Shown here: positions 5,001 through 53,829 of the stretch, piece after piece
Layout: each line of letters begins with the position of its first letter
Position numbering within the stretch: the stretch's first letter is position 1
Assembly: GCA_034432655.1 (NCBI GenBank)
Contig: DAOUBP010000096.1
Coordinates: 1,849-65,848 of the forward strand
DNA length: 64,000 bases
Source of the DNA: Anaerolineae bacterium
GTDB taxonomy: Bacteria > Chloroflexota > Anaerolineae > CG2-30-64-16
Direction of reading: 5' to 3'
The notes under the pieces: model-generated
Told to the model about the DNA's origin: nothing
The model's database searches: none
The model's input: only the letters and a program-made list of their open reading frames with translations
Made by a program: the position numbers and the translations under genes

Positions 5001-5763
5001 TACGTTTGTCAGCGGTGGCCTGGTCTACCGCACGGATAATGGCACGTCCTGGCGGCAGGTGGGCGGCTTCACCACCAACGATCTCTCCGGTCTTTACGTA
5101 CACAATATGGACGATGTTGTGATTGTGGACCGCGCGGGCAAGATCTGGCGGTATGCCAACTGGATCACACCAACCCCAGAGCCGACCGCAACTCCGACTG
5201 CCACAGCCAGCATGACCCCGACCAGCACGCCGACGGCTACCAGCACGTCAACACCGACCGCAACACCGACCGCGACAGCCACTAGCACGTCAACAGCGAC
5301 CGCGACAGCCACTTCAACCGCTACGGCCACGCCGACGGCGACAAGCACCGCTACCGCGACACCGACGGCCACAGCCACACCGACAGCCACGGCGACCGCA
5401 ACTGAAACGCCCACCGCGACAGCCACGGCGACTCCTGATACGGGGATCTTGCTCGGGTCGGTATTTGACGACCAAAACGGAAACGGCGTTCCAGATGATG
5501 GGGAACCCGGCTTGCCTGAGGTAGTCATTCGGTTGTTTGGCCCCGCTAACTATGTAGCCGAGGTGGTCACCGATGCGCAGGGGTTTTATCGGTTTATCGG
5601 CTTGCGGCCCGGTGAATATCACCTGTGGTTGATCACACCAAAAGGCTATTTTGTGTCATCAGGGCTGCCCATCATTACTGAGGTGGCGGCCAATGCCACT
5701 GTGGAAGTTCGTATCCCCTTGCGCGCCTATCGGTTGACGTATCTGCCGTTGGTAATTCGTTAA
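2038..5763 (+). CDS. Giant secreted multidomain protein, paralog A: esterase-like alpha/beta hydrolase (nucleophile elbow GFDTG) + DNRLRE-like domain + BNR/Asp-box beta-propeller + SdrD-B/Cna-B-like domain, TP linkers, C-terminal YLPLVIR
   Basis: AGGAG RBS 9 nt upstream of ATG; N-terminal signal anchor ([18 protein letters not shown]); [12 protein letters not shown]...GFDTGGMLA resembles PHB-depolymerase-family esterases; W-x-E-x-x-ATWN motif; four S/T-D-G-G-x-T/S-W Asp-box repeats; [15 protein letters not shown]...TDAQGFYRF SdrD-B-like; long TPTATP linkers. Confidence 0.85.
5164..5445 (+). repeat. Low-complexity ACN-CCN-ACN-GCN DNA encoding a TPTATATPT linker
   Basis: ~280 bp of (acg/acc ccg acc gcg)-type triplet repeats; produces spurious VGVAVGV antisense ORFs. 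Confidence 0.8.
5740..5760 (+). other. C-terminal YLPLVIR motif (last 7 residues) of paralog A
   Basis: ...[13 protein letters not shown]-stop; basic residues 3-5 positions upstream. Confidence 0.8.
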
Positions 5764-5772
5764 GCCTGACCT

Positions 5773-5815
5773 CACGGTGGTCTGTGGGCGGCTCCCCTGC
5801 CCACAGACCACCGTG
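5773..5815 (+). terminator. Perfect 17-bp-stem hairpin immediately after paralog A stop (terminator-like, no clear U-tract)
   Basis: cacggtggtctgtgggc-ggctcccct-gcccacagaccaccgtg; followed by tgaaaaaac. Confidence 0.4.
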
Positions 5816-8900: not shown

Positions 8901-10543
8901 TGGCGGCGCGTTGGACTGGAATCGGCGATACCGTGTTGGTCGGCGCCAGCTGCAGTCGCATCTTACACGCCACTGACGGCATAAATTTCAAAATAGTCAC
9001 CACCGAAGGTTGCTCGGATCAGTGGGATTTTGCCTGTCCAGCTGCTGGTCAGTGCTATTCAGCAGGCAGCCAGAACAGCGTCTTCCGTTCGACCGATAAC
9101 GGTACAAGCTGGACGCGTAGCCAGTTCGGTGCTGCTGGTTCGGTTTACAACGGCATCAGTTGTGTAGACACGAACCGTTGTTGGGTGGTCGGCACGGAAG
9201 GCCAGATCTTCAGGACCCTGGACGGAGGTCTGACCTGGCAGCAACAATCTGGCCCGTCGGCCGCGGTCACCTTCAATAAAGTGCACATGCTGAATGCAAC
9301 CCAGGGTTATGCCGTTGGGGACGGCGGAATCATTTATCGCACCGATGATGGGCTAACTTGGGGCCAGTTGCCGTCTTTCACCGCTGCGAATCTGATGGAT
9401 GTCTACGCGTTGCGCATGGACAATGTCTATGTCTTGGACGCCGCCGGTAAGGTCTGGCATTTTGATGGCCAGGCCCCTGTGAATACGTTGACCCCTATGC
9501 CGACCAATACGCCGACGCGCACACCGACGCTGACTGCCACGCCGACCGTAACGCGGACACCCACACCTACGGCAACCGCGACTGCGACGTCTACGCCGAC
9601 TGCGACCTATACGCCTACCGCTACCGCGACACCAACACCGACTACCGGTGAGATCGTGGGCCTGGTCTTCAATGATCTTAACCGCAACGCTGTACAAGAC
9701 CCGGGCGAGCCCGGCTTGGAAGGATTCCGCATCTACTTGCGCAAGGGGGATGTGATCTATCGTACCACTCAGACCGACGTCACCGGTCGTTTTCGGTTCG
9801 TAACCGTTGATCCCGGCTTATGGAATGTCTGGCTGATCATCCCGCCCGAATTCGTGCTCATCGGCGTGACCAACCCGGCGGTGATATATGTGTCGGCAAA
9901 TACTCAGCTCGACGTGATCTTCCCTCTGTCACAAGGGGGTACCTTGACACCGACCTTTACCCCCACAGTGACACGCACCCCCACGATCACCCCGACGCCG
10001 ACGAGCACGCCAACGCGCACTGCAACGCCGACCGCGACCGCCACGGTCACGCCGACGCGCGTGCCGGGCGAGCGGATTATCCGTGGCATAGTGTTCGTAG
10101 ATGCTAACCGCAATCTCGTGCGCGACCCCGACGAACCGGGGTTGAGCGGCGTCACAATTCAATTACGGCAGGCTTCTCAAGTACGGGCCAGCACCACCAC
10201 CGATGGCAGCGGCCGGTTTATCTTCCCCGATGTGGATATGGGTCTGTGGAACGTGACGATCGTAGTGCCACCCGGCATGGAAGTGATCGGAACGCCCGAT
10301 ACCGTAGCGGTTTTCGTCGGCCAGGAATCCGTGTTGGACCTGCAGTTTGCTCTTGTGTATTTGCCGACAGCCACACCTACGGCGACGGCAACCTCTACAT
10401 CTTCGCCGACGGCGACATCTAGCCCGACGCGCACGGCGACAGCTACGATTACACCCAGCCCGACGGCGTCCCGGACGCCTGTGCCGACGCCGGTGCTGCG
10501 GAAGCAGTATATCCCCTTGCTGCTGAGAGGGTTGGATAGCTAG
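5942..10543 (+). CDS. Giant secreted multidomain protein, paralog B: esterase-like domain (elbow GYGMG) + DNRLRE-like + SdrD-B-like + BNR beta-propeller + 2x SdrD-B-like, TP linkers, C-terminal YIPLLLRGLDS
   Basis: GGAGAG RBS before ATG 5942 (longest ORF begins GTG 5903); signal anchor FFPWLLIALFLVVVTIPSAAL; domain order differs from A and C. Confidence 0.85.
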   Translation: MVPGNLVRRTFFPWLLIALFLVVVTIPSAALTRPARDDNPALTAAGQGVAATILDVTIPSTYYNNWSGYADEGTRVRLQIPSGYSPAVPAPLVIALHDYNQTRVDSFNSYAAAADARGWLLAAPEMHGEVNNAPNVGVRVMGSRASQWDVLDTINYMKANYNVDSTRIYLIGYGMGGLTAQIFAAKWPHLIAAVVADSSPSNLVIWEFDTRSTGDTPNAAINQAMLQETGAYHPSTHQLIAERRPYRYHFEYERRSPTDFALNFRHIPLLLLHPSNDTTVAPAHAHIMYRNVLDYTETTVQLEFFSGNHGSRRADYANYTLNWLGQFQRPADFVPQNNTFSRDESGRNFWIGVQLSSDAVSVDPSTYALRTEAHWTRVWDATFNRDLRTIEVDVENLEPLTGSVKDYGAYPPTDLTVQLDFYLDQIGLPTSGPYTVERINKDTGQFTISTATASGGVVRVAVPKGAYLYRIVAGDQPPAYQTVTFQQGVNGYTGVQDTFISEWPPPPGQSDEDYATWSDLAISHIGSLAQREPLLRFDLSSLPVNAHIRFAVLIVNTSLLPDNINRPPVDVFQVNRQWVVNQTTWRLARSGVPWEVPGAAGVPGDRSGAYTDRRMVYMANPPAAWGFDVGGMVRSWVASPASNFGLLLRAAPAAADYTKEDNDFFVASSEASTQSSRPKLVVVYTTEQPTPTPTITPTPTATATPTETPTPTPTHTPTMTPTPTETATPTVTPTRVPGTRVISGDVFMDDNRSGERDPGESGVADVPVALIFDGIVRYNATTDSNGEFLFPDVDPPGTWVVRIVPPPGLGTLSGEDSQTVVLDVNDEKYVPFPMVVLPTPTPTPTATATATATPTATATPTVTSTPTATPTRTLTPTATPTAINGWRQVYHAPGVIWRDLEFVDANVGYAVGGPPGDAEGQATLLKTTDGGASWAEQKLNTLSWMDGLTCKNAQTCWIAGKYGTIQRTLDGGTTWQGMNSNYTGFLVAARWTGIGDTVLVGASCSRILHATDGINFKIVTTEGCSDQWDFACPAAGQCYSAGSQNSVFRSTDNGTSWTRSQFGAAGSVYNGISCVDTNRCWVVGTEGQIFRTLDGGLTWQQQSGPSAAVTFNKVHMLNATQGYAVGDGGIIYRTDDGLTWGQLPSFTAANLMDVYALRMDNVYVLDAAGKVWHFDGQAPVNTLTPMPTNTPTRTPTLTATPTVTRTPTPTATATATSTPTATYTPTATATPTPTTGEIVGLVFNDLNRNAVQDPGEPGLEGFRIYLRKGDVIYRTTQTDVTGRFRFVTVDPGLWNVWLIIPPEFVLIGVTNPAVIYVSANTQLDVIFPLSQGGTLTPTFTPTVTRTPTITPTPTSTPTRTATPTATATVTPTRVPGERIIRGIVFVDANRNLVRDPDEPGLSGVTIQLRQASQVRASTTTDGSGRFIFPDVDMGLWNVTIVVPPGMEVIGTPDTVAVFVGQESVLDLQFALVYLPTATPTATATSTSSPTATSSPTRTATATITPSPTASRTPVPTPVLRKQYIPLLLRGLDS
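10508..10528 (+). other. C-terminal YIPLLLR motif of paralog B (followed by GLDS-stop)
   Basis: ...PTPVLRKQYIPLLLRGLDS-stop. Confidence 0.8.
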
Positions 10544-13800: not shown

Positions 13801-13914
13801 CCCACGCCCACCGCGACCGCTACACCGACGGCGACGCCCACGCCCACTGCGACCGCCACACCGACGGCCCGCAACTGGCGCAGCTATCTACCACTGTTGC
13901 TCAGGACAGAGTAG
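10846..13914 (+). CDS. Giant secreted multidomain protein, paralog C: extra N-terminal domain + esterase domain with canonical GYSMG serine elbow + DNRLRE-like + one SdrD-B-like domain, TP linkers, C-terminal YLPLLLRTE
   Basis: signal anchor VFLVVLLIVIPLASIG; only paralog retaining G-x-S-x-G; lacks BNR propeller; abuts the next gene with 6-bp spacer. Confidence 0.85.
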   Translation: MSINLQRFSRFHRLWRRVFLVVLLIVIPLASIGSSLRSTGAATAVTGIATSLTIDCMAVGKDYLGGDHPSPYATTKEVTLNWEGTVESARLVAYEFNASSAYKNNIYVNDVWIGQPQGDNPSAKICEGFSGGSPRVWPINPALLVKGRNTIRITVESDAYDQSWGLSRVRLEVSGSTVNGLRYELVTIPSTYTNNWQDYRHQGTWTHIQIPPSYDPARPVPLVVVAPGYYSPAFDYILDYGPAAADRGWLLAAADLHGEVQPTAVFDPQEQRLLYGARTMGARAAQYDIMDIVNYMQAHYSVDPSRIYLIGYSMGGLTAMTTAAKWPHVFAAVAADSSPSNLVIWEYDTRDTGDTPNFNLNLAMQIETGAYAPGTHYLFAYRKPSQYHFEYERRSPTDFALNFKHLPLLLLHPSGDTKVAPAHARTMYQAVLDNDPAHVELQLYPGNHGVRYPDHANYTLDWLAQFQRDPNVAPQHNTFSRDESGRNFWIGLQYSSDAVSVDPLTHALITEAHWTRVWDATYNTDLRTIEVDAENLVPLTGKTDDFGAYPPNDLTVQMEFYLDQIGLPRSGPYTVERIDKDTGQFVVNTATASNGVLRVPLPKGAFVYRIVAGDRPPTYQTITLQQDLNGYTGARDTFISAWEPDLNYGPWPNQTLAVSHIGRRAQREPLLRFDLSRLPANAIVRFAVLIVRATDVPGNINRPPVEVYRLNRPWVDNQATWRQASSGTFWSQEGAEGVPTDREATPEAVRMIFMGNPTTYWGFDVSALVRSWLANPASNYGLIIRAAPKIAEFTKEDNDFFIASSEHPIQSFRPRLVVVYTTDQPTATPTITPTPTHTPTVTPTPTSTLTPTPTITPSPTPATADILGHFFLDANRNGVHDADEVSLPGRLVYLKQNGEIRGSTTTDSAGDFRFAKVLPGLWQVEASIPPGYDVTTLDGNPVTVEVIAGRDVRVSFGVAPQPTATATPTATATATPTPTATPTATPTPTATATPTATPTPTATATPTARNWRSYLPLLLRTE
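13885..13905 (+). other. C-terminal YLPLLLR motif of paralog C (followed by TE-stop)
   Basis: ...ARNWRSYLPLLLRTE-stop. Confidence 0.8.
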
Positions 13915-13920: not shown

Positions 13921-14625
13921 ATGGATTTTGCAGCGTTTTACGATGGGTATTGGCGGGGAAAAGCCGACGATGAGGTGGATCGGACGCGATTAGAGCAGTT
14001 GGCACGCCATGTGGTCGCCGGCGAGCGCGTGCTGCAGGTGGACTGTGGCCCTGGCTGGTTGCCGCAGATGCTGCTTGCACGGGGCGCGCAGGTCGTTGCC
14101 ACCGATCTTTCTGCGGTGGCTGTGGCGCGCGCCCGGGCGCGCGGGGTTGACGCTTTTCAGTTCGATATTGACACTGGTTCGTTGCCCTTTGCCGACAACT
14201 CATTTGACGTGGTGATCTCTGACTCTCAGCTCGAGCACCGTGTTAACACCGATCATGCCCTGAACGAGATGGCCCGGGTGTTGCGGCCCGGCGGACGATT
14301 GATCCTGTTGCTGCCGAATACCGCCCATTGGCGCGTACGTTTATGGCTGCTGCGCGGCCGCTTCCCATATCTGGATCATACCCCTACCGATCCTCTGCAT
14401 TTGCGATTTTTCACCCTGCCTGACGTGCGTCAGTTGCTGGCCCGACGTAATCTGGCTGTTATCTTCACCGACGGTAGCGCAAGCCTATGGGTGGATGATC
14501 TTTATCCCCGGTTCTTGCGGCGAGGCGGTTATCTGGCGGCAGGTTACATCTGGCTGGCTCATCGCTGGCCGGGGCTTTTTGCGCGTGATTTCATCGTAGT
14601 AGCGCGCAAGCAGGCCCGGAAGTGA
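13921..14625 (+). CDS. Class I SAM-dependent methyltransferase
   Basis: LQVDCGPGW (motif I), DVVISDSQLEH, LRPGGRLIL motifs. Confidence 0.75.
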   Translation: MDFAAFYDGYWRGKADDEVDRTRLEQLARHVVAGERVLQVDCGPGWLPQMLLARGAQVVATDLSAVAVARARARGVDAFQFDIDTGSLPFADNSFDVVISDSQLEHRVNTDHALNEMARVLRPGGRLILLLPNTAHWRVRLWLLRGRFPYLDHTPTDPLHLRFFTLPDVRQLLARRNLAVIFTDGSASLWVDDLYPRFLRRGGYLAAGYIWLAHRWPGLFARDFIVVARKQARK

Positions 14626-14632
14626 GCGCTTT

Positions 14633-16132: not shown

Positions 16133-16153
16133 TTCGCGTGAGGTGGATGTTTC

Positions 16154-18013: not shown

Positions 18014-19229
18014 ATCGTTGACCTCGCTGGCGGGTGAGACGATCTTGTGTATGGCACCCGACCCTTGGCACGGTCTGTGGCGGAATCGTCATCACATTAT
18101 GACGCGGCTGGCGCGGCGCAACCTGGTACTCTACGTAGAGCCCAGGGTCTACTTGTGGGAAGCGTTGCGGCGTTTTCGCACCGGCCAATGGCGCCTGTCC
18201 GATTTGCGCCGGCCGCTGGCTGAGCATTATCAGGATGGGCTATATATTTATCACGATCCGTACTATGCACCGTTTGCGGGCCGGCTGAGCGGTGGGCCAC
18301 TGACCGCTGCATTGCGTCAGCGTGCCTTGCGCAAGACGTTGGCGCAATTGGGCGGCGGCGCGCCGATTTTGTGGTTATTGCGACCGTATCAGGCGGATCA
18401 CATCGGACGCTGCGATGAGAAACTGGTGGTCTATCATGTTACCGACGAATACAGCGCATACCCTTCGGTGACCGATCGAGAGGCATTTCGCCGTGCTGAG
18501 GAGGCGTTGTTGCGGCGGGCGGACCTGGTTATTGTCACGGCGCCCGGCTTGCTGACCAGCCGAAAGCCGCTTAACCCGCACACTTTTTTGGTGCCGAATG
18601 CAGTGGACTACGCAGGGTTTCAGCAGCGTTTGGCGCAACCAGCGTTGTGCCTTGAGGGAATGGCCGGTTTGCCCCGCCCGCGCATCGGCTACGTGGGCGC
18701 TTTGAACGAGAAGGTGGATTACGGGTTGTTGGCTCAGGTCGCCCGCCAACGGCCTGCGTGGCATATTGTGCTGGTGGGGCTACGTGATCTGGCCAGCGAG
18801 CCGCATAAGGCGGATGTGTTGGATGGGCTGACAAACGTTCATTGGTTGGGACCGGTGCCGGTCACAGAAGTCCCTGGGGCCATCGCCGGATTGGACGTGT
18901 GCCTGTTGCCTTATGAGCGTAACCCATGGACAGCGAACATTGATTCGCTGAAGTTGTATGAATATCTGGCTTGTGGGCGGCCGGTGGTTAGCACCGATGT
19001 GCCGACAGCCCATCTCTTTGATCGTGAGTCGGCCCGGGCGGGTGTTCCGTTGGTGCGCGTGGCCGACACCCCGGAAGCTTTTGTGGCACAGATTGAGGCT
19101 GCGCTGGCCGAGAATGGGCCGGAGGCGGCGGCTGCCCGTCGTCGCGTCGCTGCCGCTAACACCTGGGAACAGCGCGTCGCCCAGATCGAGCGCCTGTTGC
19201 TCGAGGCCCTGGCGCGCAAGAAGCGATGA
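18003..19229 (+). CDS. Glycosyltransferase (GT1/GT4-like), tandem paralog 1
   Basis: N-term PDPWHGLWRNRHHIMTRLAR; C-term LKLYEYLACGRPVVSTDVP; 11-bp overlap with upstream gene. Confidence 0.7.
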   Translation: MASESLTSLAGETILCMAPDPWHGLWRNRHHIMTRLARRNLVLYVEPRVYLWEALRRFRTGQWRLSDLRRPLAEHYQDGLYIYHDPYYAPFAGRLSGGPLTAALRQRALRKTLAQLGGGAPILWLLRPYQADHIGRCDEKLVVYHVTDEYSAYPSVTDREAFRRAEEALLRRADLVIVTAPGLLTSRKPLNPHTFLVPNAVDYAGFQQRLAQPALCLEGMAGLPRPRIGYVGALNEKVDYGLLAQVARQRPAWHIVLVGLRDLASEPHKADVLDGLTNVHWLGPVPVTEVPGAIAGLDVCLLPYERNPWTANIDSLKLYEYLACGRPVVSTDVPTAHLFDRESARAGVPLVRVADTPEAFVAQIEAALAENGPEAAAARRRVAAANTWEQRVAQIERLLLEALARKKR

Positions 19230-22586: not shown

Positions 22587-22591
22587 CGCGC

Positions 22592-33040: not shown

Positions 33041-36012
33041 AAAAGAGACAATTGACCATTCTGGCAGCTATCAGCGCCGTCGTCCTGCTGGTAACCGCTG
33101 CGGCCGTCGGCGCCGCGCCCGCCAGCACCCGGCCGGCCGCCGATCCCTTGCCTGGCGAACGGCCGGCTGCACAGGCGCCCGCAGCCGTGCCCGATAACCT
33201 GGCCGCGGGCCGGGCCCCGGGCGTTTACTACCTGGATTACGGCGGGACGATTGTGGACCCCACGCAGTATCCGGTGCAGGGCGCTCTGCGCTTTTTCGGC
33301 TGGAGCACTCTACAGACCGGGCCGAACAGTTACAGTTGGAACGCGTTGGACAATTGGATCGCGGAGCGCAAGGGGCGTGGGCTGAGCACCGGCGTCTTCA
33401 TCAGCACCTACGACGGCAAGTACGACGGCGACATCCGTTCGACTCCCAATTTCGTGATCGAGACCCCGGGCACGATGATCGTAACCCCCGAGTACATCAA
33501 TTACTACCAATTCAGCCAGAACGGCAGCTTTGAGACCTCCACCCCGGTGCATGGTTATCTGTATGCCTGGGACAAGGCGGGCGATGCTTCCGGTGAGGTT
33601 GCACCCGGCGGCAGCCACGCGGCGAAGCTGGGCGGTGTGGAGGGCGGCACAGGCAGCATCACCCATTGGACCGTGCGCGTGCCGGCCATGCCGCCGGAGC
33701 TGACCAGCGGCACCAAGATGGAGCTGAAATATAAGCTTTATGTTGCTACCACTGACGTTAACCCCAACGCCGACCAGTTGTTCGTGGAACTTCTGGATCA
33801 GGAGAGCAATTTGCTGGCCAGCGTTGCCGCCCACTCCAACACCAGCGACGCCACCGGGACCTGGCTCAACATCGGCCCATTGGACTTAAGCTCCTATGTC
33901 GGCCGCGAACTGCGGCTGCGCTTTCGCGCGTTGAACGATGCGACCGCGCCCACCACCTTCTGGGTGGACGACGTGGAGCTGCGGGTGCGTCTGATCATCC
34001 CCAAGTATTGGGGTGATCCGTACAAGAACCTCTATCGCACGTTCGTTACTGAGTTGGGTAAGCGGTTGAGCGGCAACAGTGATGTTGACTTCGTCGCTAT
34101 CGGCACCGGCCTGCACGGTGAGACCCAGCCGTGCGACACCGAGCACCAGGGTTACCTGGAGGCTGCCGGCCTGAACTCTGACTTATGGGTGGCCACGGCA
34201 AACGAGATCACCAGCATGTACAGGGCGGCGTTCTCCGACAGCAGGGGGAACTTGAAGAAAAACCTGTTGCTGCAGTATGCGCCGTATTTTAAATACGCCT
34301 GGGAACGCGAAGCGATGAGCCGTTTCGCGGCGGAGAACGGCGTTGGCCTGTCCTACAATGGCCTGCTGCCGGACTGGGTGGGCAGCTATAGGAGCGACGG
34401 CACCGCTTCCTACGACCCCATCCGCAAGTATTGGAGCCTCGTCCCGGTGGCCTGGGAGACGTACACCTACATGCTGTGCACGCCGGTCTTCACCTATTGG
34501 TCCCTTTTTAGCGCGCTGGACAAACACGCCGATTATGTGCGCATCGGGGACGACTTGCTGACGGGGCCGCAAGGCACTTCCAACAAGCCGTTCTTCGAAT
34601 GGGCGAAGAAGTATTGGGGCCAGACCGGACAGACCACGCCGGGCGCCTGGGTGGTGATGCGCGAGCATCGCAACCCCACCCCTTACTGTCACTCCTCGTC
34701 CTATCCCACCTACGTGTATCAGGGCTCGGATGGTGGGCCATGGATCTACGTCCCCGGCGGCGATGTGCGGGGGTCCACCTACCCGCAGTTTGGCAACTAC
34801 TCTTTCTACCTGTACCAGGATGATGGCATCCCCGGCGGCCGCACGGTGCCTGAGACGAACGACAAGGGGGCTGACAGCCGGTATGCCTTTAATCCTGTAA
34901 CCGGTGCCAAGTGGACCGATGCAGGTTTGGGCAACTGCCCAACGGTCAACGATTACGCCAGCGTACTTTACCCGCCCGATTACCCCTGCAACAAACAGCC
35001 ATATAATCCTGATCTGCCGCCTCTGGGCTCGAACCCGAGCAATTACTACGCACCTTCCTCCTGGACCGACGCGGGGAAGGAAGCGTGGGTGGTGCGCCGC
35101 ACCGACCAGGACACAGGCAACCGCTACATGTGGTTTGTGTTCGACAACAGCTTCATCAGTGATGGCGATTCGAAGATCCACAGTGTCACAATCACCGTCA
35201 AGTACTTCGACATCGGCACCGACACCTGGACCCTGCGTTACGACAGCAGCAGCGGTGAGAAGGTCGCCGGCACGATCACCAAGACCAACACAAAGCAACT
35301 GAAGGAACAGGTCTTCACCATCACCGACGGCAAGTTCTCCGGCCGGCTGACGGGCGGCGCCGACTTCGTGTTGGACTGCAACAACGACGGCAACGAGTGG
35401 GTGCACATGGTGGAGGTGGTTAAATTAAGCTCCGTGACGCCGACGCCCACGCCGACCGCGACCGCAACGGCTACGGCCACGCCTACTATCACCCCGACGG
35501 CTACGCCTTCCCCCACGGGGACGCCGACCACGGGGATTGTCACAGGTTATACATTTCATGATCTGAACGGTGATTTTGAGAAAGGCGCAGGCGAACCGGG
35601 CCTGCCCGGCGCAGTGGTGGTGCTCAAGCCGGGCCTGGTCGGCACCACCGAAGCTTACACGGCTACTTCCGATGTGAACGGCCAGTTTGTCTTCGGCGCG
35701 GTGGCGCCTGGCCAGTACAGGATCGCCGTCAAGACGGCGCCGGCAGGGTTCCAGCCCCTCCTAGTGGATGCGATCCTGGTGGTCAGCGTCAATGCGACCA
35801 CAACCTTCAATATCCCGCATCAGCTTGCGCCGACTGCCACGCCGACGGCGACCAGCACGGCCACGCCGACGGCAACACTGACGGCTACACCGACGGCGAC
35901 CAGCACGGCCACGCCGACGCCGACGCTGACGGCGACGCCGACCGCAACCTTGACGCCGACGCCTGTTCACAGGCGAACCTATCTGCCGTTGGTGCTTTCC
36001 AGCGCTCCATAA
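33037..36012 (+). CDS. Secreted GH-like (TIM-barrel-type, family unassigned) protein, paralog 1: CBM4/9-like module (NGSFE...), SdrD-B-like domain, TP linkers, C-terminal YLPLVLSSAP
   Basis: AGGAGA RBS; signal peptide MKKRQLTILAAISAVVLLVTAAAVGA; shares G-x-[YH]-GE-[TN]-x-P and APY[FY]KY blocks with genes at 40301 and 43991. Confidence 0.8.
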   Translation: MKKRQLTILAAISAVVLLVTAAAVGAAPASTRPAADPLPGERPAAQAPAAVPDNLAAGRAPGVYYLDYGGTIVDPTQYPVQGALRFFGWSTLQTGPNSYSWNALDNWIAERKGRGLSTGVFISTYDGKYDGDIRSTPNFVIETPGTMIVTPEYINYYQFSQNGSFETSTPVHGYLYAWDKAGDASGEVAPGGSHAAKLGGVEGGTGSITHWTVRVPAMPPELTSGTKMELKYKLYVATTDVNPNADQLFVELLDQESNLLASVAAHSNTSDATGTWLNIGPLDLSSYVGRELRLRFRALNDATAPTTFWVDDVELRVRLIIPKYWGDPYKNLYRTFVTELGKRLSGNSDVDFVAIGTGLHGETQPCDTEHQGYLEAAGLNSDLWVATANEITSMYRAAFSDSRGNLKKNLLLQYAPYFKYAWEREAMSRFAAENGVGLSYNGLLPDWVGSYRSDGTASYDPIRKYWSLVPVAWETYTYMLCTPVFTYWSLFSALDKHADYVRIGDDLLTGPQGTSNKPFFEWAKKYWGQTGQTTPGAWVVMREHRNPTPYCHSSSYPTYVYQGSDGGPWIYVPGGDVRGSTYPQFGNYSFYLYQDDGIPGGRTVPETNDKGADSRYAFNPVTGAKWTDAGLGNCPTVNDYASVLYPPDYPCNKQPYNPDLPPLGSNPSNYYAPSSWTDAGKEAWVVRRTDQDTGNRYMWFVFDNSFISDGDSKIHSVTITVKYFDIGTDTWTLRYDSSSGEKVAGTITKTNTKQLKEQVFTITDGKFSGRLTGGADFVLDCNNDGNEWVHMVEVVKLSSVTPTPTPTATATATATPTITPTATPSPTGTPTTGIVTGYTFHDLNGDFEKGAGEPGLPGAVVVLKPGLVGTTEAYTATSDVNGQFVFGAVAPGQYRIAVKTAPAGFQPLLVDAILVVSVNATTTFNIPHQLAPTATPTATSTATPTATLTATPTATSTATPTPTLTATPTATLTPTPVHRRTYLPLVLSSAP
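35980..36000 (+). other. C-terminal YLPLVLS motif (followed by SAP-stop)
   Basis: ...PTPVHRRTYLPLVLSSAP-stop. Confidence 0.75.
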
Positions 36013-36172: not shown

Positions 36173-37789
36173 ATGTCAAGATGGTTTCCTCTTGGTATCG
36201 TCCTGTTGATGACGGCCAGCCTGTTTGGGCTTTCCGGAGCGCTCAGTCGAGATGTAGCAGCCCGCGCGGCCGGATCAAGCCAGTGGGTACAAGAGCTTCC
36301 GACGCCGACGCTGGTACCCGGCACCGGCGCGATCGTAGGCCTGGTGTGGCACGATTTGAACAGTAACGGTTTGCGAGAGGCGGGCGAACCGCCCCTGGCC
36401 GGGGTGTTGCTATCCCTGGCACAGTCAAACGGCACCGTTGTGGCCACGGCACTTTCAGGTGAGGATGGCCGTTACCGCCTGGCGAACCTGGATCCGGGCC
36501 TGTATCAACTTGTGGCAACCCCTCCGACAGGCTACCAGCTGACCACGCCGGGCCTGTTCAACGTTTACGTTTCTGCCGGCAATGTGCTGACCATTGATTT
36601 CGGCGCGCGTCTTGTGCCCACGCCGACCCCGACCGCCACCCCGGTGCCTCGTTTGGATACCGACAGTGCAACCTTTGCCTGGTGTGGCAGTGTCATCTAC
36701 GGCACCACGCAAAACAAATCGAACAACGTCAGCAGCTATGGCTGTCGGCCTCATTGGCCCGAAACCGGGCCAGAGGTGGTCTACCGGATAGAGCTTAACC
36801 GGACACAGTCTTTCTCCGCTGCTTTCAGGATGACTACTGCTGATCTCGACTTGTTCCTGTTGCGGAGCGCCTTTCCGGAAAGTTGTGTCGCTGCTGGGGA
36901 CAACTATCTTGCGCTTGAGGCCTCGCCTGGCCTTTATTATCTGGTTGTTGACGGGTATGATGGTGCTGTCGGTGATTATGTGTTGAAGGTGGAGTGCCCT
37001 TTTGAGGTGCAGGCAACTCCTACACCCACGTTCACTCCCTCGCCAACTCCCACGGTCACACCGACCTTCACCCCCGGGCCGACAGCAACCCCAACCGCCA
37101 CACCGATCCCACACTGGCACTACCTGCCCCTGGTCGTGCGGCAGCCGGTTAGTGTCGTGGGCCCCCCTTCGCTGATGGTGTTTCAGCAAGGGCTTCAACA
37201 GTACAACGGGGTTGTTGATACTACTTTGAGCGCCTGGCAGCCCGACACCGCATTGGGCGGAAGTCCCCGCTTGTCGTTGCGTTATAACCAACAGACGGTT
37301 GAAACCACCCACATGGCGCCTTTGTTGCGGTTTGATTTGGGCTTGCTTCCGGCCAGCTCACAGATCGTTTCCGCCACGTTGGCCCTCTACGTGATTGAAC
37401 TGGAGCGGCCTGAGGACATCCGCGGGGAAGTCTATGGCCTGTTGGTGCCCTGGCGCGGTGAAACAGCCACCTGGCGACAGCGGGATGTGGGCCTGCCCTG
37501 GAATCGTCCCGGCGCGCAGGGGGCGGGCAGTGATCACATGGCCTGGCGGAGCGATAGCCAGCTCATCACCAGCAGTGGTCGTTGGGTGACCTTTGACGTC
37601 TCTGGGCTTGTGAGAACCTGGTTGGCGCAGCCTCTATCTAATTACGGCATGGTGGTCCTGGCTCAGCCCGGAGAGAGCGGGAGCAATCTCCAGGTTGATT
37701 TCGCCAGTAGTGAATACGGGGAGGTGAGCCTTCGCCCTAAGTTGACAGTGGCCTATCTGGTGCCTTTGGCTGCCAGTAACAGCCGTTGA
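36173..37789 (+). CDS. Secreted protein: SdrD-B-like domain + PPC/P-domain-like Cys-containing domain + TP linker + internal YLPLVVR + DNRLRE-like domain
   Basis: start chosen at MSRWFPLGIVLLMTASLFGLSGALS signal peptide (ORF opens at 36059); C-terminal 230 aa homologous to the DNRLRE-like region of paralogs A-C. Confidence 0.7.
   Translation: MSRWFPLGIVLLMTASLFGLSGALSRDVAARAAGSSQWVQELPTPTLVPGTGAIVGLVWHDLNSNGLREAGEPPLAGVLLSLAQSNGTVVATALSGEDGRYRLANLDPGLYQLVATPPTGYQLTTPGLFNVYVSAGNVLTIDFGARLVPTPTPTATPVPRLDTDSATFAWCGSVIYGTTQNKSNNVSSYGCRPHWPETGPEVVYRIELNRTQSFSAAFRMTTADLDLFLLRSAFPESCVAAGDNYLALEASPGLYYLVVDGYDGAVGDYVLKVECPFEVQATPTPTFTPSPTPTVTPTFTPGPTATPTATPIPHWHYLPLVVRQPVSVVGPPSLMVFQQGLQQYNGVVDTTLSAWQPDTALGGSPRLSLRYNQQTVETTHMAPLLRFDLGLLPASSQIVSATLALYVIELERPEDIRGEVYGLLVPWRGETATWRQRDVGLPWNRPGAQGAGSDHMAWRSDSQLITSSGRWVTFDVSGLVRTWLAQPLSNYGMVVLAQPGESGSNLQVDFASSEYGEVSLRPKLTVAYLVPLAASNSR
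37121..37141 (+). other. Internal YLPLVVR motif after TP linker
   Basis: ...TATPIPHWHYLPLVVRQPVSVVGPP...; same context (linker, basic/His residues, motif) as the C-terminal copies. Confidence 0.75.
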
Positions 37790-43300: not shown

Positions 43301-43822
43301 AGCCCAACTGCCACGTTTACAGCCACGCCCTTCCTTACACCGACCAATACGCCGACTGCCAGTGCCACGATAGCCCCGGGTTTCGGTGTTGTGGAGGGTA
43401 TGGTATTCTATGACGGGGATGGGGATGGCAACCCCGGTTTCGGAGAGCCGGGTCTCCAGGATGTGACGCTGGCGTTGATGCAGGCCGCCAGCCGGCAGTA
43501 TACGACATTTTCGCGGGCTGACGGCTCTTATCGTTTCTCAGAGGTAACTCCGGGAAACTACAAGCTGGTTGTCGAAGCCTGGCCCGCTGGTTACTATCCG
43601 ATTCATAACGCCATCCTCTTCGCCGTCACAGCCGGCAGTCGGCTGGAGATCAATATCCCGTTGGGCCGCCTTTCGGAGTCCACACCGACCGCGACCGCGA
43701 CACTGACACCTATTTTGCATCCCACCAGCACGTTGACGCCGACCGCGACCTATCCCGCCCCGACCGCAACGGCGACTTCCTCGCCTCGCAAAATCTACTT
43801 GCCTTTGGTACTGCGCCCTTAA
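40301..43822 (+). CDS. Secreted GH-like protein, paralog 2: GH-like domain + DNRLRE-like + CBM9/DOMON-like + SdrD-B-like, TP linkers, C-terminal YLPLVLRP
   Basis: signal peptide [28 protein letters not shown]; [16 protein letters not shown] and APYYKY blocks shared with 33037 gene. Confidence 0.85.
43796..43816 (+). other. C-terminal YLPLVLR motif (followed by P-stop)
   Basis: ...[17 protein letters not shown]-stop. Confidence 0.8.
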
Positions 43823-48232: not shown

Positions 48233-50428
48233 TCAATCCGTCAGCCGGAGCGCCGGGTCGCCCAGCAGGTTGAAGGTCAGGAGGATATCGCGGACGCCGC
48301 CCAGGGCTTGTGGTAGCGCAGACTGGGCCTGAAGCACCACCTCCCCCAGGGTACGGGACTGCGCGGCATTGTCGGACTTGGCCAGGGCGGCCGCCAGCTC
48401 GCGCGCCAGTAAGCGCTGGTCGGTAAGCACGGCTGCGCTGGAAGGCACCAGCGCGGCGACCGCACCACCGTTCCTGGCGCGCAGAAGCGTTTCCCCCAGC
48501 GAGGGTGTGCTGGGATGTTCGAACAGGCCGCTCAGGCACGTGACGGTGAAAACGACTGGCAGCCGGTCCTTGTTTTCCAGCCTGTCCACGTCTTCCACCC
48601 CGAAGATCTTCTCTTTGGCCCAAAGCGTCACACTGCCGTGGCCGAAGTAGCCGATCAGACCGCGGCCCTCAGCGAAAGCCCGGAGGAGCGCGTTTCGGGC
48701 TGCTGTCCCGTCTTCGGCGATCAAGACTTCATCGGCCGTGTAGCCGGCAAGGCGGTCAGCGAATTCCCGTGTCTCCTCCGCGAAGCCCGGTTCGTCGTTG
48801 TCGGCGATCAGCAACGCCTGTCCTCGCCACCCGGCCGCACCCTCCTGGCGTTCATAGGCCAGCGTCTTGGCCACCATCGTCGCCATCTGTTCGGCGGTTT
48901 GGGCGGGGAAACGGCCCACGGCCAGCGCAGGCCGGGCCTCTGGCCCTTCCTCGAGCAACGCGTACCAAACGTCGGAGCTGGTCCAGCCGGAGAAGGTGGT
49001 AAACACCGTCTGTGTCGGTACCAGGTCGCGCTCGGTTCCCTTCAGGTAGCCGCGCGGGTCGTAACTGGCGTCACCGGCCAGCAGCAAGAAGCGCGGGGCG
49101 GGGGGTGTCCAAGCGGCCAGGGCCTGCTGCACCAGCGCCTTGATCGCCTCGGGGCCGGCGCGGCCGAAGTTGAAGCGGTCGTAGACTTGTTCCACATCCA
49201 CGACCGCTACCCGCAACCCCTGGGCCTGGCGCGCAGCCACCAGCGGCTGTAGTGCCGCCCGAAACGCCGGCACTGTCACTATGATCATGTCCGCGCCGCC
49301 GGGCCAATTTCGCAAGTCGGTGCCAGAGGCGGCTGCCACGGCTGCGGGTCGGCGCAGCCCGCCTTCCGTTGCGATGATAAACCGGCGTGGGGTGCCGTCA
49401 GAAGCAAAGCGCAACACGCCTTCCCGCCATTCGTATCCCTGCAGCGCAATCGGGGCCGCAGGATCGGTGATGTCCCATAAGGCGACCGGTGGCGCAGCCA
49501 ATCGGACTGCAAAACCGGCAGCTGCCCCGGCAAATGTCAGGCCGCCACCATCAGCGGCCAACTCGCGGTGATAAGTGATCTCGATCCAGTCCAGCTGGAT
49601 GCTATCCACCGGGGCGCCGGTATCATTGGGCAGCCAGAGGCTCAGCCGGTTTTCGCCTGTCCGCAAGCTGCCGGAGGCCAGGGTTGTCTCGAGGATGTAC
49701 GGGCCCGGCCCGTCCCAATGCGCGTCGGCAGCCTGAGTGCCGTTTACCGTCAACACCAGGTGGTGGTCGGGGTCTATCGTCCCGGACGAAGAGCTGCCGT
49801 AGAGCCCCAGGCGCACGACGGCTTCACCGTCGGCTGCTTGTGGGACATCGAGGTTGATGGTCAATTCGGCCGGCGCGAAAAGTGCCTCCCAATACCAGCG
49901 GTTTTCACCGGGTTTGGCCAGCCCCCGGTAGTGGCGTCGTTGCTCACTGCGGAGGGTGTCGGTGACGGTTGCGGTCAGGGCGGTCTCAGCCGTGGGGGCG
50001 GCATCTCGTTCCACGATGGCCCGTGAGACCTGGTCCTCAGCTCTTCGGCTCAGCCAGTAGATGTTGCGGTCGGTGTATGCGTCCGGCCCCAACGCCTGGC
50101 CATAGAAGCGCAGGCTGCGGCCGCGGCCCTCGCCGGTTAACTGGAACGCGACCGGCTCGCCACCTGAAGTCAGGGTAAGCTGGTCGGGGCGCGCGCCGGC
50201 CAGGTCGAACCCGCTGCGCGCCAGCACGTCCGCCGAAACCGTGTAGATGCCGTCAGCTTCCACGGCCAACTTGATCGTCTCAACGTTGGGCGCCTGGGCA
50301 GGGGTGCACCCGGCCAGCAGCAGCAGGAGGATCAACAGAAACAGGGCCTGCGGGGCAGGTCCCACATGCGGCGCTGACTGTGCCAGGGCGGATGATTTCA
50401 ACCGGTTGGTAGCCAGGTTCCGATTCAT
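48233..50428 (-). CDS. Clan CD / family C25 (gingipain/PorU-like) cysteine peptidase, putative lipoprotein
   Basis: signal + lipobox LLLAGC; His motif GYFGHGSVTLWA and Cys motif LPVVFTVTCLSGLFEH; ends LLGDPALRLTD. Confidence 0.65.
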   Translation of the reverse strand: MNRNLATNRLKSSALAQSAPHVGPAPQALFLLILLLLLAGCTPAQAPNVETIKLAVEADGIYTVSADVLARSGFDLAGARPDQLTLTSGGEPVAFQLTGEGRGRSLRFYGQALGPDAYTDRNIYWLSRRAEDQVSRAIVERDAAPTAETALTATVTDTLRSEQRRHYRGLAKPGENRWYWEALFAPAELTINLDVPQAADGEAVVRLGLYGSSSSGTIDPDHHLVLTVNGTQAADAHWDGPGPYILETTLASGSLRTGENRLSLWLPNDTGAPVDSIQLDWIEITYHRELAADGGGLTFAGAAAGFAVRLAAPPVALWDITDPAAPIALQGYEWREGVLRFASDGTPRRFIIATEGGLRRPAAVAAASGTDLRNWPGGADMIIVTVPAFRAALQPLVAARQAQGLRVAVVDVEQVYDRFNFGRAGPEAIKALVQQALAAWTPPAPRFLLLAGDASYDPRGYLKGTERDLVPTQTVFTTFSGWTSSDVWYALLEEGPEARPALAVGRFPAQTAEQMATMVAKTLAYERQEGAAGWRGQALLIADNDEPGFAEETREFADRLAGYTADEVLIAEDGTAARNALLRAFAEGRGLIGYFGHGSVTLWAKEKIFGVEDVDRLENKDRLPVVFTVTCLSGLFEHPSTPSLGETLLRARNGGAVAALVPSSAAVLTDQRLLARELAAALAKSDNAAQSRTLGEVVLQAQSALPQALGGVRDILLTFNLLGDPALRLTD

Positions 50429-50434: not shown

Positions 50435-51496
50435 TTACCGCAGCCGGGATGCGCGCCAGATCAGCAAGCCGGCGATAGCCAGCATGCTGGCCACCGCAAT
50501 CGCACCAGCACCTAACACGAGTGTCAAACGGGTGTTGCGTGCCCCGCTTGGAGGGGCCGGCAGCGGTGTTGCCGCTGGCCGCGTGGCCATATTCTCCAGG
50601 ACCGATGTGGCTGCTGCTTGGGCGAAAACCTGTGGCGCGTTTGTGGCCTCCGGGACCACTGCCTGAGTGGACACCGGCCCTGGTGGGCTGGCCGTCGTCA
50701 GCGGTGCCGGTTCCCCCACGGTCGGCGACGGCACCGGCGCAGGGAGGGCGGTCTCGCCCGGCGTCGGGGTCTCGGTGGGAGCCGGGACAAAAGACCCTCC
50801 GCCGGAAGGTGTGGGCGTGGCAACTTGCCCGACCGGCACCGATGTCGCAGCAGGCTGAGGCGTGGGTGTCCAGGCAGTTCCCGGGCCGGTGGTGGCCGTC
50901 GGCGGCGGGACGGGGGTGTTGGTGAACTGCCGTGTAGCGGTGGGTGCCGGTTGCGAGCCGCCGGCAGGTGGCTGCGTTGTCATGGTGGCGGTGCGGGTGG
51001 CCGTCGCAATGGAAGGTGCGGTGGCTGTATGAGTCGCCGTCACCGTGGCAGTAGGTGTTGCCGTGGCAGTAGGGGTTGCCTCGGGCTCCAGGCCGATACC
51101 TGCGTTCACCGGGCCGGCGCGTTGTCCGGGCCCGGCCGAAGTCAGCTCTTCGAGCAGATAGTAATAGCGCACGCCCGGCACCACGTCCATGTCACGATAC
51201 TCGTAGGTCGCCCCGGTGAATCCGTCGCCCTGAGCCGGCAGCGTTTGAACCGGTGTCCCCCATGCTGCGTTAGCGGCCAGCGGCTCCAGTGCCCGATACA
51301 AATTGAAACCGGCGGTATCGAACTCAGTGGCCGTCTCCCACACCACCAGGATCGAGCCATCTGCTTGCGGCGTGGCCTCAAACCGCGCCAGGGTGATGTT
51401 GGCGTTGACGGACAGGCTGCTCAGGCCAAGAAGCAACGCTATGGCGATAACTGTATAGCTGGTAATGATGAAAGGCGATCGTTTGTTATGCATCAT
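50435..51496 (-). CDS. Secreted FN3-like-domain protein with long P/T-rich stalk and C-terminal TM anchor + RASRLR tail
   Basis: signal peptide; GSILVVWETATEFDTAGFNLYRA...RYYYLLEE beta-sandwich; C-terminus LTLVLGAGAIAVASMLAIAGLLIWRASRLR-stop. Confidence 0.65.
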   Translation of the reverse strand: MMHNKRSPFIITSYTVIAIALLLGLSSLSVNANITLARFEATPQADGSILVVWETATEFDTAGFNLYRALEPLAANAAWGTPVQTLPAQGDGFTGATYEYRDMDVVPGVRYYYLLEELTSAGPGQRAGPVNAGIGLEPEATPTATATPTATVTATHTATAPSIATATRTATMTTQPPAGGSQPAPTATRQFTNTPVPPPTATTGPGTAWTPTPQPAATSVPVGQVATPTPSGGGSFVPAPTETPTPGETALPAPVPSPTVGEPAPLTTASPPGPVSTQAVVPEATNAPQVFAQAAATSVLENMATRPAATPLPAPPSGARNTRLTLVLGAGAIAVASMLAIAGLLIWRASRLR

Positions 51497-51516
51497 GTCC
51501 GTTTGGATTGTTGTTT

Positions 51517-53829
51517 TCAGCGCGCGATTAACGGCAGATAGACCGGCGTCAGTCTTGGCCCCGGCAAACGCAGCGCCGGGTCGCCGAACAACGTCATGGT
51601 CGGGATCAGATAGTTCGCGCCGAACACCTGCGTATATTGCCGCTTGGCGATGATGAGCGCCCGGCCCAGTTCTCGTACGTTATCTTTGAATAGCACGTTC
51701 ATCAGGATTTTGCGGAAGTTTTGCTGATCGCTGGTAACGCCCAGGCCCGACGGTGAAATGGCTGCAATAGAGCCACCCCCGGCACGGCGGAGCATGACCT
51801 CGGCGATGCTGGCCAGGGCCGGATCAGTGTGCGCGAAGTAGCCATCCAGGCAGTTGAATGTCATCACCACCGGCAACATGTCGCCGTTGGTCAGGCCGGG
51901 CACGTAGTTGTTGCGCCAGATGGATTCATGGGCCCACCGCTCCGGCGCGCCATGACCGGCATACTGCACCAGCCAGACACCCGACTGCAGAGTATTGGAG
52001 ATGATCGCGCGGGTGGCCTCGATCTCGGCCGATGTGGCTGGGACCGCAGGCGGACTGCCCGGCAAATACGCTCGGATGATTTCCAGATCTTTGGGGATGT
52101 AATTCGCGATGATCTCGTCGGACACGGCCGGAAAGTCGCCGGCGGAATCGGGGTTATCGGCCACGAACAGGGCCCGCTGTTGCCATGCTGCCTGGCGTGT
52201 CGTCTGATCGTAGTTGATGATCTTCTCCACCACGGTCTGGGCTTCTTCCAGGGTGTTCACGGCCAGCCGCCCCACCGCAATTTCCGGCACCAGGTCGCCA
52301 TCCAGATCCCCGTAGTGCCCGTCCGCAGGCACCTCGCCCTGCCAGGGGTCTACCCAGGCCAGGTAGGGCGGCACGTGGTTGGGACCAGGAGGGTATTTGG
52401 CCGGGTTATAGCCCTTGAAATTCCAATCGCCATCTCCCAGCAAGGTCAGGTAGGCCGGCGCGGGCGATGCCCAGTGAGTGCTGGCCCAGTTGAGCATGGT
52501 CGGCACGGCCTTGGGGTGCAGGATGCCGTAGTTGAACTCGTCGTAGATGTCCCGCATCTCGGCCACCAGGGCCCGACGGCCGTTGGCGCGATGCCAGTCG
52601 GCCAGTTGGTTGGCGGCCGGCAGCAGCGCAGCCGAGGTGACGATCACAGCATCGGCGCCGCCGGGCGGATTGCGCAGGCCGGTGTCCGGGCGCAGGCGCA
52701 GCGAGGCCGGCTTTGTAAATGTAGCAGTCTCTTGCAGCCAGTAGCGCGCGCCGGCCTGGTCGTTGGACCGGAAGCGGACATCGAAGGTCGCGCCGACAGG
52801 TGTCGCAGTCGCGTTGATCAGGATGCGGGGCGCGTACGGGTTGGTGACATCCCAAATCGTTATTGCACTGCTGGTCCAGCCGTGGCTTTCGTATTCCTGC
52901 GGCCCGTTCAGCTCAGCAGTGAAATCCAGCCTGCCTTCCCAGGCGCGGAACAAACGACGATAGTCTATCTCCCAATAATTCGCATAAACATCATCACTGG
53001 TATTGCCGGGCATGGTCCAGGCGCCAACCTGCACCGTTGTCGTGGGATGAACCAGGAGACCGGCGGGCAGGGACGCAGTGAAAACCATGCGCTTTTTGTC
53101 CGACCAGGTCTGGTCAATAACGCTCAGGCCGTTGACCGACACGGTGGTGCGATGGTCCGGGTTGGGGCCGGTGTAGGCGCGGCCGATCTCTTCCAGCCGG
53201 AAAGTAGCGGGTGAGTCCGGGGCCGGGTAGGGCACGGTGTAGGGCAAGGTGACTGTAACGGCACTGCCAACGGACAGGGGCGGCCGCAGCCGGGCCCAGA
53301 ACCAGGTATCCTGGGTGTCGAGGATGAGGGTGTGTAACGTCCACCACTCTAGCGATTCCTCGGCGCGTAGGGTTGTGGGGAAGTCGGCCGGGGGTGTCAG
53401 ATCGCCGATAGGGGCGGCATCCACCTCGGCGATGCGTGGCCCGGCCGTGCCGCCGACCTCCAGCCAGTAGACGCGCTCATCCGTGTACTTCTGTTCCATT
53501 TCCGGCCCGCGGAACTTCTGGCCGAAGAAAAGGAGGTGGTCCCCGGGATCAAACGAGCCGTCGGCCTCACCGATCACCTGGATGGCGACCGGTTCGCCCA
53601 GGCTGCTGAGGGCGAAGGTGCGCGGATCAACGGCCGTCGGGTCTATCCCGGCCGCGGCCAGGTCGTCCGGCCCGATGCGCACGATGCCGTCGGCCGTCAC
53701 GCCGATGCGAAGGCGGATGGCCGTCGTCGGCTCGAGCGGCTGCGCTCGCGCTGCGGCATATCCCGGCGCCTGGGGGAGCACTGTCCACAGCAAGGCCAAC
53801 ATTAGCAGGAGGCGAAAGGTGAGTTTCAT
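51517..53829 (-). CDS. Clan CD / family C25-like cysteine peptidase carrying C-terminal YLPLIAR
   Basis: signal peptide MKLTFRLLLMLALLWTVLP; QYAGHGAPERWA and LPVVMTFNCLDGYFAH; ends LFGDPALRLPGPRLTPVYLPLIAR. Confidence 0.65.
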   Translation of the reverse strand: MKLTFRLLLMLALLWTVLPQAPGYAAARAQPLEPTTAIRLRIGVTADGIVRIGPDDLAAAGIDPTAVDPRTFALSSLGEPVAIQVIGEADGSFDPGDHLLFFGQKFRGPEMEQKYTDERVYWLEVGGTAGPRIAEVDAAPIGDLTPPADFPTTLRAEESLEWWTLHTLILDTQDTWFWARLRPPLSVGSAVTVTLPYTVPYPAPDSPATFRLEEIGRAYTGPNPDHRTTVSVNGLSVIDQTWSDKKRMVFTASLPAGLLVHPTTTVQVGAWTMPGNTSDDVYANYWEIDYRRLFRAWEGRLDFTAELNGPQEYESHGWTSSAITIWDVTNPYAPRILINATATPVGATFDVRFRSNDQAGARYWLQETATFTKPASLRLRPDTGLRNPPGGADAVIVTSAALLPAANQLADWHRANGRRALVAEMRDIYDEFNYGILHPKAVPTMLNWASTHWASPAPAYLTLLGDGDWNFKGYNPAKYPPGPNHVPPYLAWVDPWQGEVPADGHYGDLDGDLVPEIAVGRLAVNTLEEAQTVVEKIINYDQTTRQAAWQQRALFVADNPDSAGDFPAVSDEIIANYIPKDLEIIRAYLPGSPPAVPATSAEIEATRAIISNTLQSGVWLVQYAGHGAPERWAHESIWRNNYVPGLTNGDMLPVVMTFNCLDGYFAHTDPALASIAEVMLRRAGGGSIAAISPSGLGVTSDQQNFRKILMNVLFKDNVRELGRALIIAKRQYTQVFGANYLIPTMTLFGDPALRLPGPRLTPVYLPLIAR
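51520..51540 (-). other. C-terminal YLPLIAR motif (last 7 residues) of C25-like peptidase
   Basis: ...PGPRLTPVYLPLIAR-stop. Confidence 0.75.

Follow-up and report, generated by a model that had tools for sequence, protein, structure and literature searches.

The YLP-box, an ultrashort C-terminal motif on secreted proteins of an Anaerolineae bacterium, and its possible role in surface localization

We analyzed a 64,000-nucleotide stretch of the genome of an Anaerolineae bacterium of the phylum Chloroflexota (assembly GCA_034432655.1, contig DAOUBP010000096.1, positions 1,849 to 65,848; hereafter the window, whose own numbering is used throughout), in which six secreted proteins end in a short peptide of the form basic-x-x-Y-L-P-L-x-x-R. 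A preliminary description, made from the sequence of the window, had proposed this peptide as an unnamed sorting or processing signal. Judged by their alignment to two profile models, the tails are the YLP-box of NCBIfam and are, as a sequence feature, already known. The present analysis adds confirmation and context, not discovery: statistical confirmation of the motif, the range of protein families that carry it, arguments from its position behind choice-of-anchor domains and from its exchange with a membrane anchor, a negative result on linkage to C25 peptidases, and a prediction that the tail is flexible.

Motif copies and their carriers in the window

A search of the six-frame translation of the window (62% G+C) with the regular expression Y[LI]PL[LVI][LVIA] gave seven matches, six of them ending 1–5 residues before a stop codon (nucleotides 5740, 10508, 13885, 35980, and 43796 on the forward strand and 51540 on the reverse strand). 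These six are the copies named in the preliminary description, which quoted the peptide tails exactly but missed the seventh (HWHYLPLVVRQ, nucleotide 37121), internal to open reading frame (ORF) I and 215 residues before its stop. The carrier ORFs and their motif copies are as follows, with scores in bits from the position-specific scoring matrix (PSSM) described in the next section; the tail peptides given run to the stop codon.

2038-5763 (+), ORF A: signal peptide, polyhydroxybutyrate (PHB)-depolymerase-like esterase, DNRLRE, BNR/Ycf48-like, Thr/Pro linker, SdrD_B, and tail
5728..5763 (+), YLP-box tail of A: Arg is the last residue; 19.6 bits
5903-10543 (+), ORF B: paralog of A with three SdrD_B domains and Thr/Pro linkers
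10496..10543 (+), YLP-box tail of B: LRKQYIPLLLRGLDS; 16.4 bits
10846-13914 (+), ORF C: paralog of A and B
13873..13914 (+), YLP-box tail of C: NWRSYLPLLLRTE, in a longer stretch RNWRSYLPLLLRTE; 22.3 bits
32950-36012 (+), ORF G1: large N-terminal domain without a Pfam match, then SdrD_B, linker, and tail
35968..36012 (+), YLP-box tail of G1: HRRTYLPLVLSSAP; Ser replaces the usual Arg/Lys; 14.9 bits
36059-37789 (+), ORF I: SdrD_B, linker, internal YLP-box, and DNRLRE/CBM96
37109..37141 (+), internal YLP-box of I: PHWHYLPLVVR, in a longer stretch TPIPHWHYLPLVVRQPVSVV; 26.9 bits
40301-43822 (+), ORF G2: paralog of G1 with DNRLRE, CBM9, SdrD_B, linker, and tail; its large N-terminal domain, like that of G1, has no Pfam match
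43784..43822 (+), YLP-box tail of G2: 29.1 bits
51517-53829 (-), ORF P (C25a): PorU-like C25 cysteine peptidase (Pfam PF01364, 262 bits)
51517..51552 (-), YLP-box tail of P: LTPVYLPLIAR, in a longer stretch PRLTPVYLPLIAR; found by the regular expression and by NF053834

The window thus holds six tail carriers from three families plus one internal copy. By direct reading, the N-termini of all seven carriers (A, B, C, G1, G2, P, and I) are basic and hydrophobic, in the manner of cleavable signal peptides. The six tails cannot be counted as independent, because A, B, and C are paralogs sharing one architecture (PHB-depolymerase-like esterase, DNRLRE, BNR/Ycf48-like propeller, and SdrD_B) and G1 and G2 are paralogs sharing a module of SdrD_B, linker, and tail.

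The tails are 7–11 residues long, and in six of the seven copies 0–4 residues remain after the R/K position. Two details of the preliminary description need amendment. A Thr/Pro linker, said to stand directly before every tail, does so in four of the six (B, C, G1, and G2), the tail of A following the last strand of its SdrD_B domain and that of P the conserved end of the C25 catalytic domain. The upstream basic residue, placed at two to five positions, lies 6 residues before the Tyr in P. The copy in ORF I, the sole nonterminal YLP-box in the window, follows a Thr/Pro linker and stands ~10 residues ahead of the DNRLRE/CBM96 domain; that domain could have been added behind a former C-terminus, or the motif could be functional internally too.

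Selection, identity, and distribution of the motif

An alignment of C25 homologs led to 79 further loci (L002–L080, 1.1 Mb) from species-representative genomes, mostly Chloroflexota. In six-frame translation these independent loci contain seven matches to the strict pattern, six of them 0–4 residues from a stop; 25 of 35 matches to a broader pattern ending in R, K, or H lie at most 6 residues from a stop, and control patterns in which Pro or Tyr was substituted gave 0 near a stop. A PSSM trained solely on tails from loci outside the window assigned 14.9–29.1 bits to the six window C-termini and -1.5 to the next best C-terminus in the window, a separation of >16 bits. Run over the full length of all window ORFs, it reached at least 12 bits at the six tails and the internal copy only. 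Among the seven window copies, identity is 74% at codon positions 1 and 2, 38% at position 3, and 32% in the flanks. Position 3 is little better conserved than the flanks, and selection therefore acts on the peptide and not on a DNA repeat, as had been proposed. The motif is real, and is neither a chance occurrence nor a DNA repeat. It is kept in orthologs of P across 50–85% identity, and the tails follow the consensus [RK]-x-[VIT]-[YFW]-L-P-[LVI]-[VAIL]-[LSVT]-[RK], then 0–5 polar residues and the stop. Phe stands in place of Tyr in about 15% of tails, and Trp also occurs.

Two models in NCBIfam release 20, NF050076.1 (sort_motif_YLP), with 11 positions and a cutoff of 15 bits, and NF053834.1 (ultrashort_CTERM), with 10 positions and a cutoff of 10 bits, carry the description “YLP-box putative sorting motif-containing protein,” and the motif was consequently not unnamed, as the preliminary description had it. 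When the excised tails were scanned against NCBIfam at a permissive E-value, the models aligned to [RK]xxYLPLxxR. The G2 tail scored above both cutoffs (16.3 bits on NF050076 and 14.4 on NF053834), the tails of P (14.8 and 14.5) and A (14.8 and 14.0) above that of NF053834 only, and the G1 tail under the cutoff of 15 on NF050076 (13.6). For the B and C tails and the internal copy, hmmscan of the excised peptides reported no NCBIfam match, which we attribute to the filters that HMMER applies with such short models, because our own PSSM gives these three 16–27 bits. Full-length window carriers gave no YLP match in an NCBIfam scan at E ≤ 0.1, and a full-length carrier from a metagenome scored 21.1 and 19.4 bits on the two models. 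The models are not position-aware, a tail extended by poly-Ala still matching. We found no publication on the YLP-box, its enzyme, its mechanism, or any experiment on it.

Beyond these loci, metagenome contigs were scanned for DNA encoding YLPL[VIM]LR followed by a stop. This gave 123 matches, 69 of which end ORFs that are at least 100 amino acids long or cut by a contig end, the remainder being chance matches in short ORFs, mostly on low-GC contigs. The tail pattern was used to retrieve 120 metagenome stretches, of which about 50 contain a genuine carrier; these carriers include multiheme cytochromes, an M23 peptidase, and FG-GAP, BNR-like repeat, DUF11/isopeptide-domain, and SdrD_B proteins. 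Together with the esterases and C25 peptidases of the window, the carriers belong to unrelated families. An N-terminal hydrophobic segment was present in 27/33 carriers compared with 290/667 other ORFs, and in a second comparison in 31/38 compared with 100/308, as scored by a crude hydrophobicity heuristic. These results support the earlier proposal of a peptide motif that is specific to the C-termini of secreted proteins from unrelated families.

The commonest metagenome carriers have as their last domain the NCBIfam choice-of-anchor Q domain (NF041518), with the YLP tail 6–12 residues behind it. One locus (L085, 57-11237, +) encodes eight consecutive choice-of-anchor Q paralogs, all ending in aromatic-LPLI[MFL][RK]; their variants include LWLPLIMR and LFLPLIFR, so that the aromatic position takes Tyr, Phe, and Trp. 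Choice-of-anchor domains are named for preceding different sorting signals in different lineages, and the YLP-box therefore occupies the architectural slot of a sorting signal.

Exchange with a membrane anchor was seen in a gene cassette to which P belongs. On the reverse strand of the window, C25a (51517-53829) is followed by a small secreted Fn3-like protein (50435-51496) and a second C25 peptidase, C25b (48233-50428), an order found in at least 18 of the 79 loci. The small protein most often (29 of 43 copies) terminates in [GA]RN[TS]G, a transmembrane (TM) helix, and an Arg cluster, whereas in L002, L003, and L043 it ends in a YLP tail instead. Its usual tail, tripartite like a CTERM signal, reaches no NCBIfam CTERM cutoff.

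Past the conserved R/K, the modal number of residues is zero and rarely exceeds 5. A 42-column profile of linker and tail, searched against 5.8 billion proteins, recovered 59 short gene fragments, which were used for taxonomy and trailing lengths and not as a census. Over all the data, named carriers are from Chloroflexota except one labeled Nitrososphaerales. A 30-column profile of the tail, searched exhaustively with HMMER against 1.84 billion representatives, gave 1 match, the motif being too short for the tool. Three short gene calls (P0125, P0142, and P0175) have tandem YLP-boxes 12–25 residues apart (for example, ..RRYLPLILRSVSHGQPSQGHLPLVMRE) and may represent real tandem tails or gene-calling artifacts. 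Multiheme c-type cytochromes with Cytochrome_C7 and MtrC/MtrF-like matches bear a YLP-type tail at two loci (L087, 162-1622, -; L160, 278-1738, +), which suggests that surface-exposed electron-transfer proteins use the tail.

Possible function of the YLP-box

The YLP-box resembles the established tripartite sorting signals in its C-terminal place on Sec-exported proteins from diverse families, in many cases behind a low-complexity spacer, in being lineage-restricted, and in its layout of a signature, a hydrophobic stretch, and a basic residue. In the LPXTG/sortase, PEP-CTERM/exosortase, PGF-CTERM/archaeosortase, and GlyGly-CTERM/rhombosortase systems, however, the hydrophobic part is a helix of ~20 residues; that of the YLP-box is 3 residues, and membrane retention of the precursor is therefore impossible. 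The tails differ from LPXTG signals in having at most 5 residues after the motif and no TM segment (TIGR01167 gave no match), and from PEP-, PGF-, and GlyGly-CTERM signals in having three hydrophobic residues and one basic residue after the signature. None of the LPXTG or CTERM models of NCBIfam matched the window tails, either in full-length or in excised scans. The C-terminal domain (CTD) of the type IX secretion system (T9SS) is a folded beta-sandwich of 70–100 amino acids (TIGR04183-type). It is likewise a C-terminal signal on secreted enzymes, and the window encodes PorU-like C25 peptidases that are themselves YLP carriers; the YLP tail differs in being 7–11 residues long, predicted to be unfolded, and placed after a linker or the last domain. 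The T9SS CTD model of NCBIfam did not match the window carriers, and no other T9SS genes turned up among the window ORFs scanned. The preliminary description was therefore right to set the motif apart from signals with a TM helix and from the ~80-residue T9SS fold.

Ultrashort C-terminal signals are known elsewhere, such as peroxisomal PTS1 (SKL), endoplasmic reticulum KDEL, and the NHV tails of asparaginyl endopeptidase ligases. Like the YLP-box, these comprise a few residues at or near a free C-terminus and are read as a peptide by a receptor or enzyme, but they are eukaryotic and unrelated in sequence, and the analogy is one of principle only. At most, the YLP-box would work analogously to LPXTG, PEP-CTERM-type, and T9SS CTD signals.

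Because the tail follows choice-of-anchor Q domains and can be swapped with an anchor of TM helix and Arg cluster, sorting or retention is the best reading, in line with the envelope context inferred earlier. We consider that the YLP-box is probably a post-export localization signal, which keeps secreted proteins at, or fixes them to, the surface of Chloroflexota cells and is read as an exposed C-terminal peptide. It is also reasonably likely to be a lineage-specific ultrashort signal of Chloroflexota, mainly of the Anaerolineae/Caldilineae type, on Sec-exported proteins. Carriers would be exported by means of a cleavable N-terminal signal peptide, and the tail would stay unfolded at the tip of a Thr/Pro stalk or directly behind the last domain. 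There a putative envelope factor would read it as an exposed C-terminal peptide and retain or attach the protein at the cell surface. The layout of the tail may be seen as a CTERM signal in miniature, comprising an aromatic-Leu-Pro signature, a three-residue hydrophobic stretch, and a basic residue. A stretch of three residues is no stop-transfer sequence, and recognition would therefore take place in the wall or outer-layer space. We infer the retention or attachment role itself, which might proceed by cleavage and transfer or by noncovalent docking. We lean slightly toward recognition of the intact peptide over chemistry on the Tyr or cleavage after the Arg, because Phe and Trp can replace Tyr, which argues against chemistry on its hydroxyl, and because tails most often end in Arg or Lys. 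Cleavage on the N-terminal side of the aromatic residue is possible.

Several points weigh against a localization signal. No partner gene was found, so that recognition is purely inferred, and the literature offers neither an enzyme nor an experiment. To our knowledge, all characterized CTERM signals hold the precursor in the membrane, which three hydrophobic residues cannot do, and the CTERM analogy may be superficial. A strictly terminal signal does not predict the internal copy with its 215 trailing residues, the few database proteins with 18–41 residues after the motif, or the three with tandem copies. Finally, the enrichment in exported proteins was measured by the hydrophobicity heuristic and not by SignalP.

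Some of these points would suit a nonenzymatic role, in which the tail acts as a sticky end or structural element, its short hydrophobic strand, with basic residues on either side, serving in self-association, strand addition to a partner domain, or binding to a sheath or matrix polymer without dedicated machinery. All positions between the basic residues are hydrophobic, Tyr, Phe, and Trp are interchangeable, tandem and internal copies exist, and the search for a partner gene was negative. The motif is nevertheless restricted to the last residues in >80% of cases, its invariant Pro and conserved terminal Arg/Lys point to one specific reader and not to generic stickiness, and its slot after choice-of-anchor domains is that of sorting signals. 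We regard a sticky end as unlikely.

A more specific proposal makes the YLP-box the substrate signal of the PorU-like C25 peptidases of the window, which would act as a T9SS-independent sortase, cleaving at or near the motif and transferring the proteins to an envelope glycan, such as the product of the Wzx/Wzy/Wzz cluster at 14–32 kb. PorU is the C-terminal signal peptidase and sortase of the T9SS, and both C25 proteins are PorU-like. On the NCBIfam T9SS_sortase model (NF033707), P scores 256.7 bits and the second peptidase 263.9, both under the cutoff of 420. By sequence the best Protein Data Bank match of P is PorU (6za2) at 85 bits versus 46 for RgpB, and by fold it is again 6za2 (807 aligned columns, E 6e-32). 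Close homologs of P occur in Anaerolineae, Caldilineales, and other Chloroflexota metagenome-assembled genomes (MAGs), the closest locus in the species-representative collection being from an Anaerolineales MAG (68% identity). The C25 peptidases are themselves YLP carriers: among orthologs, some end in a YLP tail, some in an extra Fn3-like domain, and others in neither, and YLP tails are present on 22 of 76 C25a but 0 of 32 C25b proteins. In the window, C25 genes, YLP proteins, and the polysaccharide cluster lie together.

This association was not recovered at the other loci covered. The 120 pattern-derived metagenome stretches, about 50 of them with true carriers, contain no C25 homolog. YLP ORFs other than C25 number 4 per 1.09 Mb around C25 genes as opposed to about 20 per Mb around other YLP genes, and three of those four are the small protein of the cassette. 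Loci with related C25 genes in Brocadia and Kuenenia (anammox Planctomycetes), Cytophagia, and Desulfonema hold no YLP tail. A candidate substrate of the C25 peptidases, with a TM-type tail of the classical kind, is already encoded next to them in the cassette, which may itself be an unnamed sortase-substrate pair outside the T9SS. About half of the YLP tails end at the Arg, so that cleavage after Arg is impossible there. The missing linkage is compatible with an enzyme encoded elsewhere in the genome, but on these grounds we consider it improbable that the C25 peptidases of the window read the YLP-box. The wider association with C25 peptidases, GT-C proteins, and Wzy_C raised in the preliminary description also finds no support beyond the window, as no neighbor family specific to carriers recurs in the 120 stretches, where the only recurrent neighbors are generic (response regulators, ClpB, and a Wzt-type ABC ATPase).

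We also considered docking of the tail of P in its own active site, for which structure prediction gave no support. In a confident AlphaFold2 model built with 30 homologs, the predicted local distance difference test (pLDDT) score is 88, falling to about 51 in the last ten residues (761–770). The model places the tail outside the active site in cis and predicts it to be a free, flexible end; it says nothing on recognition in trans. An argument for Arg specificity of P from the S1 residue Asp163 of RgpB was dropped, as the HMMER alignment is ambiguous in this loop and P is PorU-like there.

A role as a processing or turnover tag, by which an extracytoplasmic tail-specific protease or carboxypeptidase such as the neighboring M14 or S8 enzymes would activate or degrade the carriers, appears very unlikely. 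It would explain an exposed hydrophobic C-terminus ending in Arg/Lys, and M14 and S8 genes adjoin the C25 genes of the window; however, neither family recurs near metagenome carriers (the single S8 match is itself a carrier), and the membrane-anchor swap and choice-of-anchor context point to localization. The chance that the tails are a compositional or DNA-repeat artifact is negligible: paralogy of A, B, and C and of G1 and G2 inflates the count of six, but the positions at independent loci, the negative controls, the codon-position identities, and the PSSM gap reject it.

Filamentous Chloroflexota occur in large numbers in sludge, sediments, and hot springs. The architecture of their envelope is unsettled, since outer-membrane-like layers are seen by electron cryotomography in some species but are absent from others (PMC7332563). 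The window and the fetched loci together reveal a short tag on many of their secreted proteins, including esterases, peptidases, multiheme cytochromes, and adhesin-like proteins, and the YLP-box could serve as a practical marker for surface-proteome prediction and as an entry point to the machinery that builds the Chloroflexota surface. More tentatively, it may be a true envelope-sorting signal without a membrane span, read by a factor outside the sortase, exosortase, archaeosortase, rhombosortase, and T9SS classes. We hold this stronger version to be possible but doubtful; if true, the YLP-box would be the shortest dedicated surface-sorting signal known in bacteria and would offer a handle on how the atypical Chloroflexota envelope, with its debated outer layers (PMC7332563), receives its proteins. 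The window makes a good test bed because it combines six carriers of three families with an internal copy.

Other genes and C-terminal endings at the locus

YLP-box proteins stand on both flanks of a polysaccharide biosynthesis cluster (13921-32000, +), which encodes Polysacc_synt_3 (a Wzx-like flippase), an Asn-synthase-like protein, several GT4 glycosyltransferases, two methyltransferases, Wzz, and Wzy_C. PMT_2-like membrane proteins are also encoded, one of them (37805-39367) lying with a Bac_transf sugar transferase (39414-40268) between ORFs I and G2.

P is adjoined by an M14 carboxypeptidase (53942-56122, -), an S8 subtilase (56218-58377, -), and the second C25 peptidase. The M14 and S8 enzymes share another C-terminal ending, NHFY[IV] followed after about 20 amino acids by F[SD]FALT and then AGN or RP before the stop, which has no NCBIfam match and resembles the final strands of an Fn3-like domain. 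On some C25 orthologs (P0028, P0031, P0032, P0036, P0041, and others) this same ending, as NYFYVVQA..VGEFDFALTPG, makes up an extra C-terminal domain that replaces the YLP tail.

Near the end of the window, an ORF of 928 amino acids (61096-63882, -) has no Pfam match and an odd translation rich in Gly, Ala, Arg, and Val. As ORFs cut by the window end were not listed, it may be the antisense shadow of a forward-strand gene that leaves the window there.

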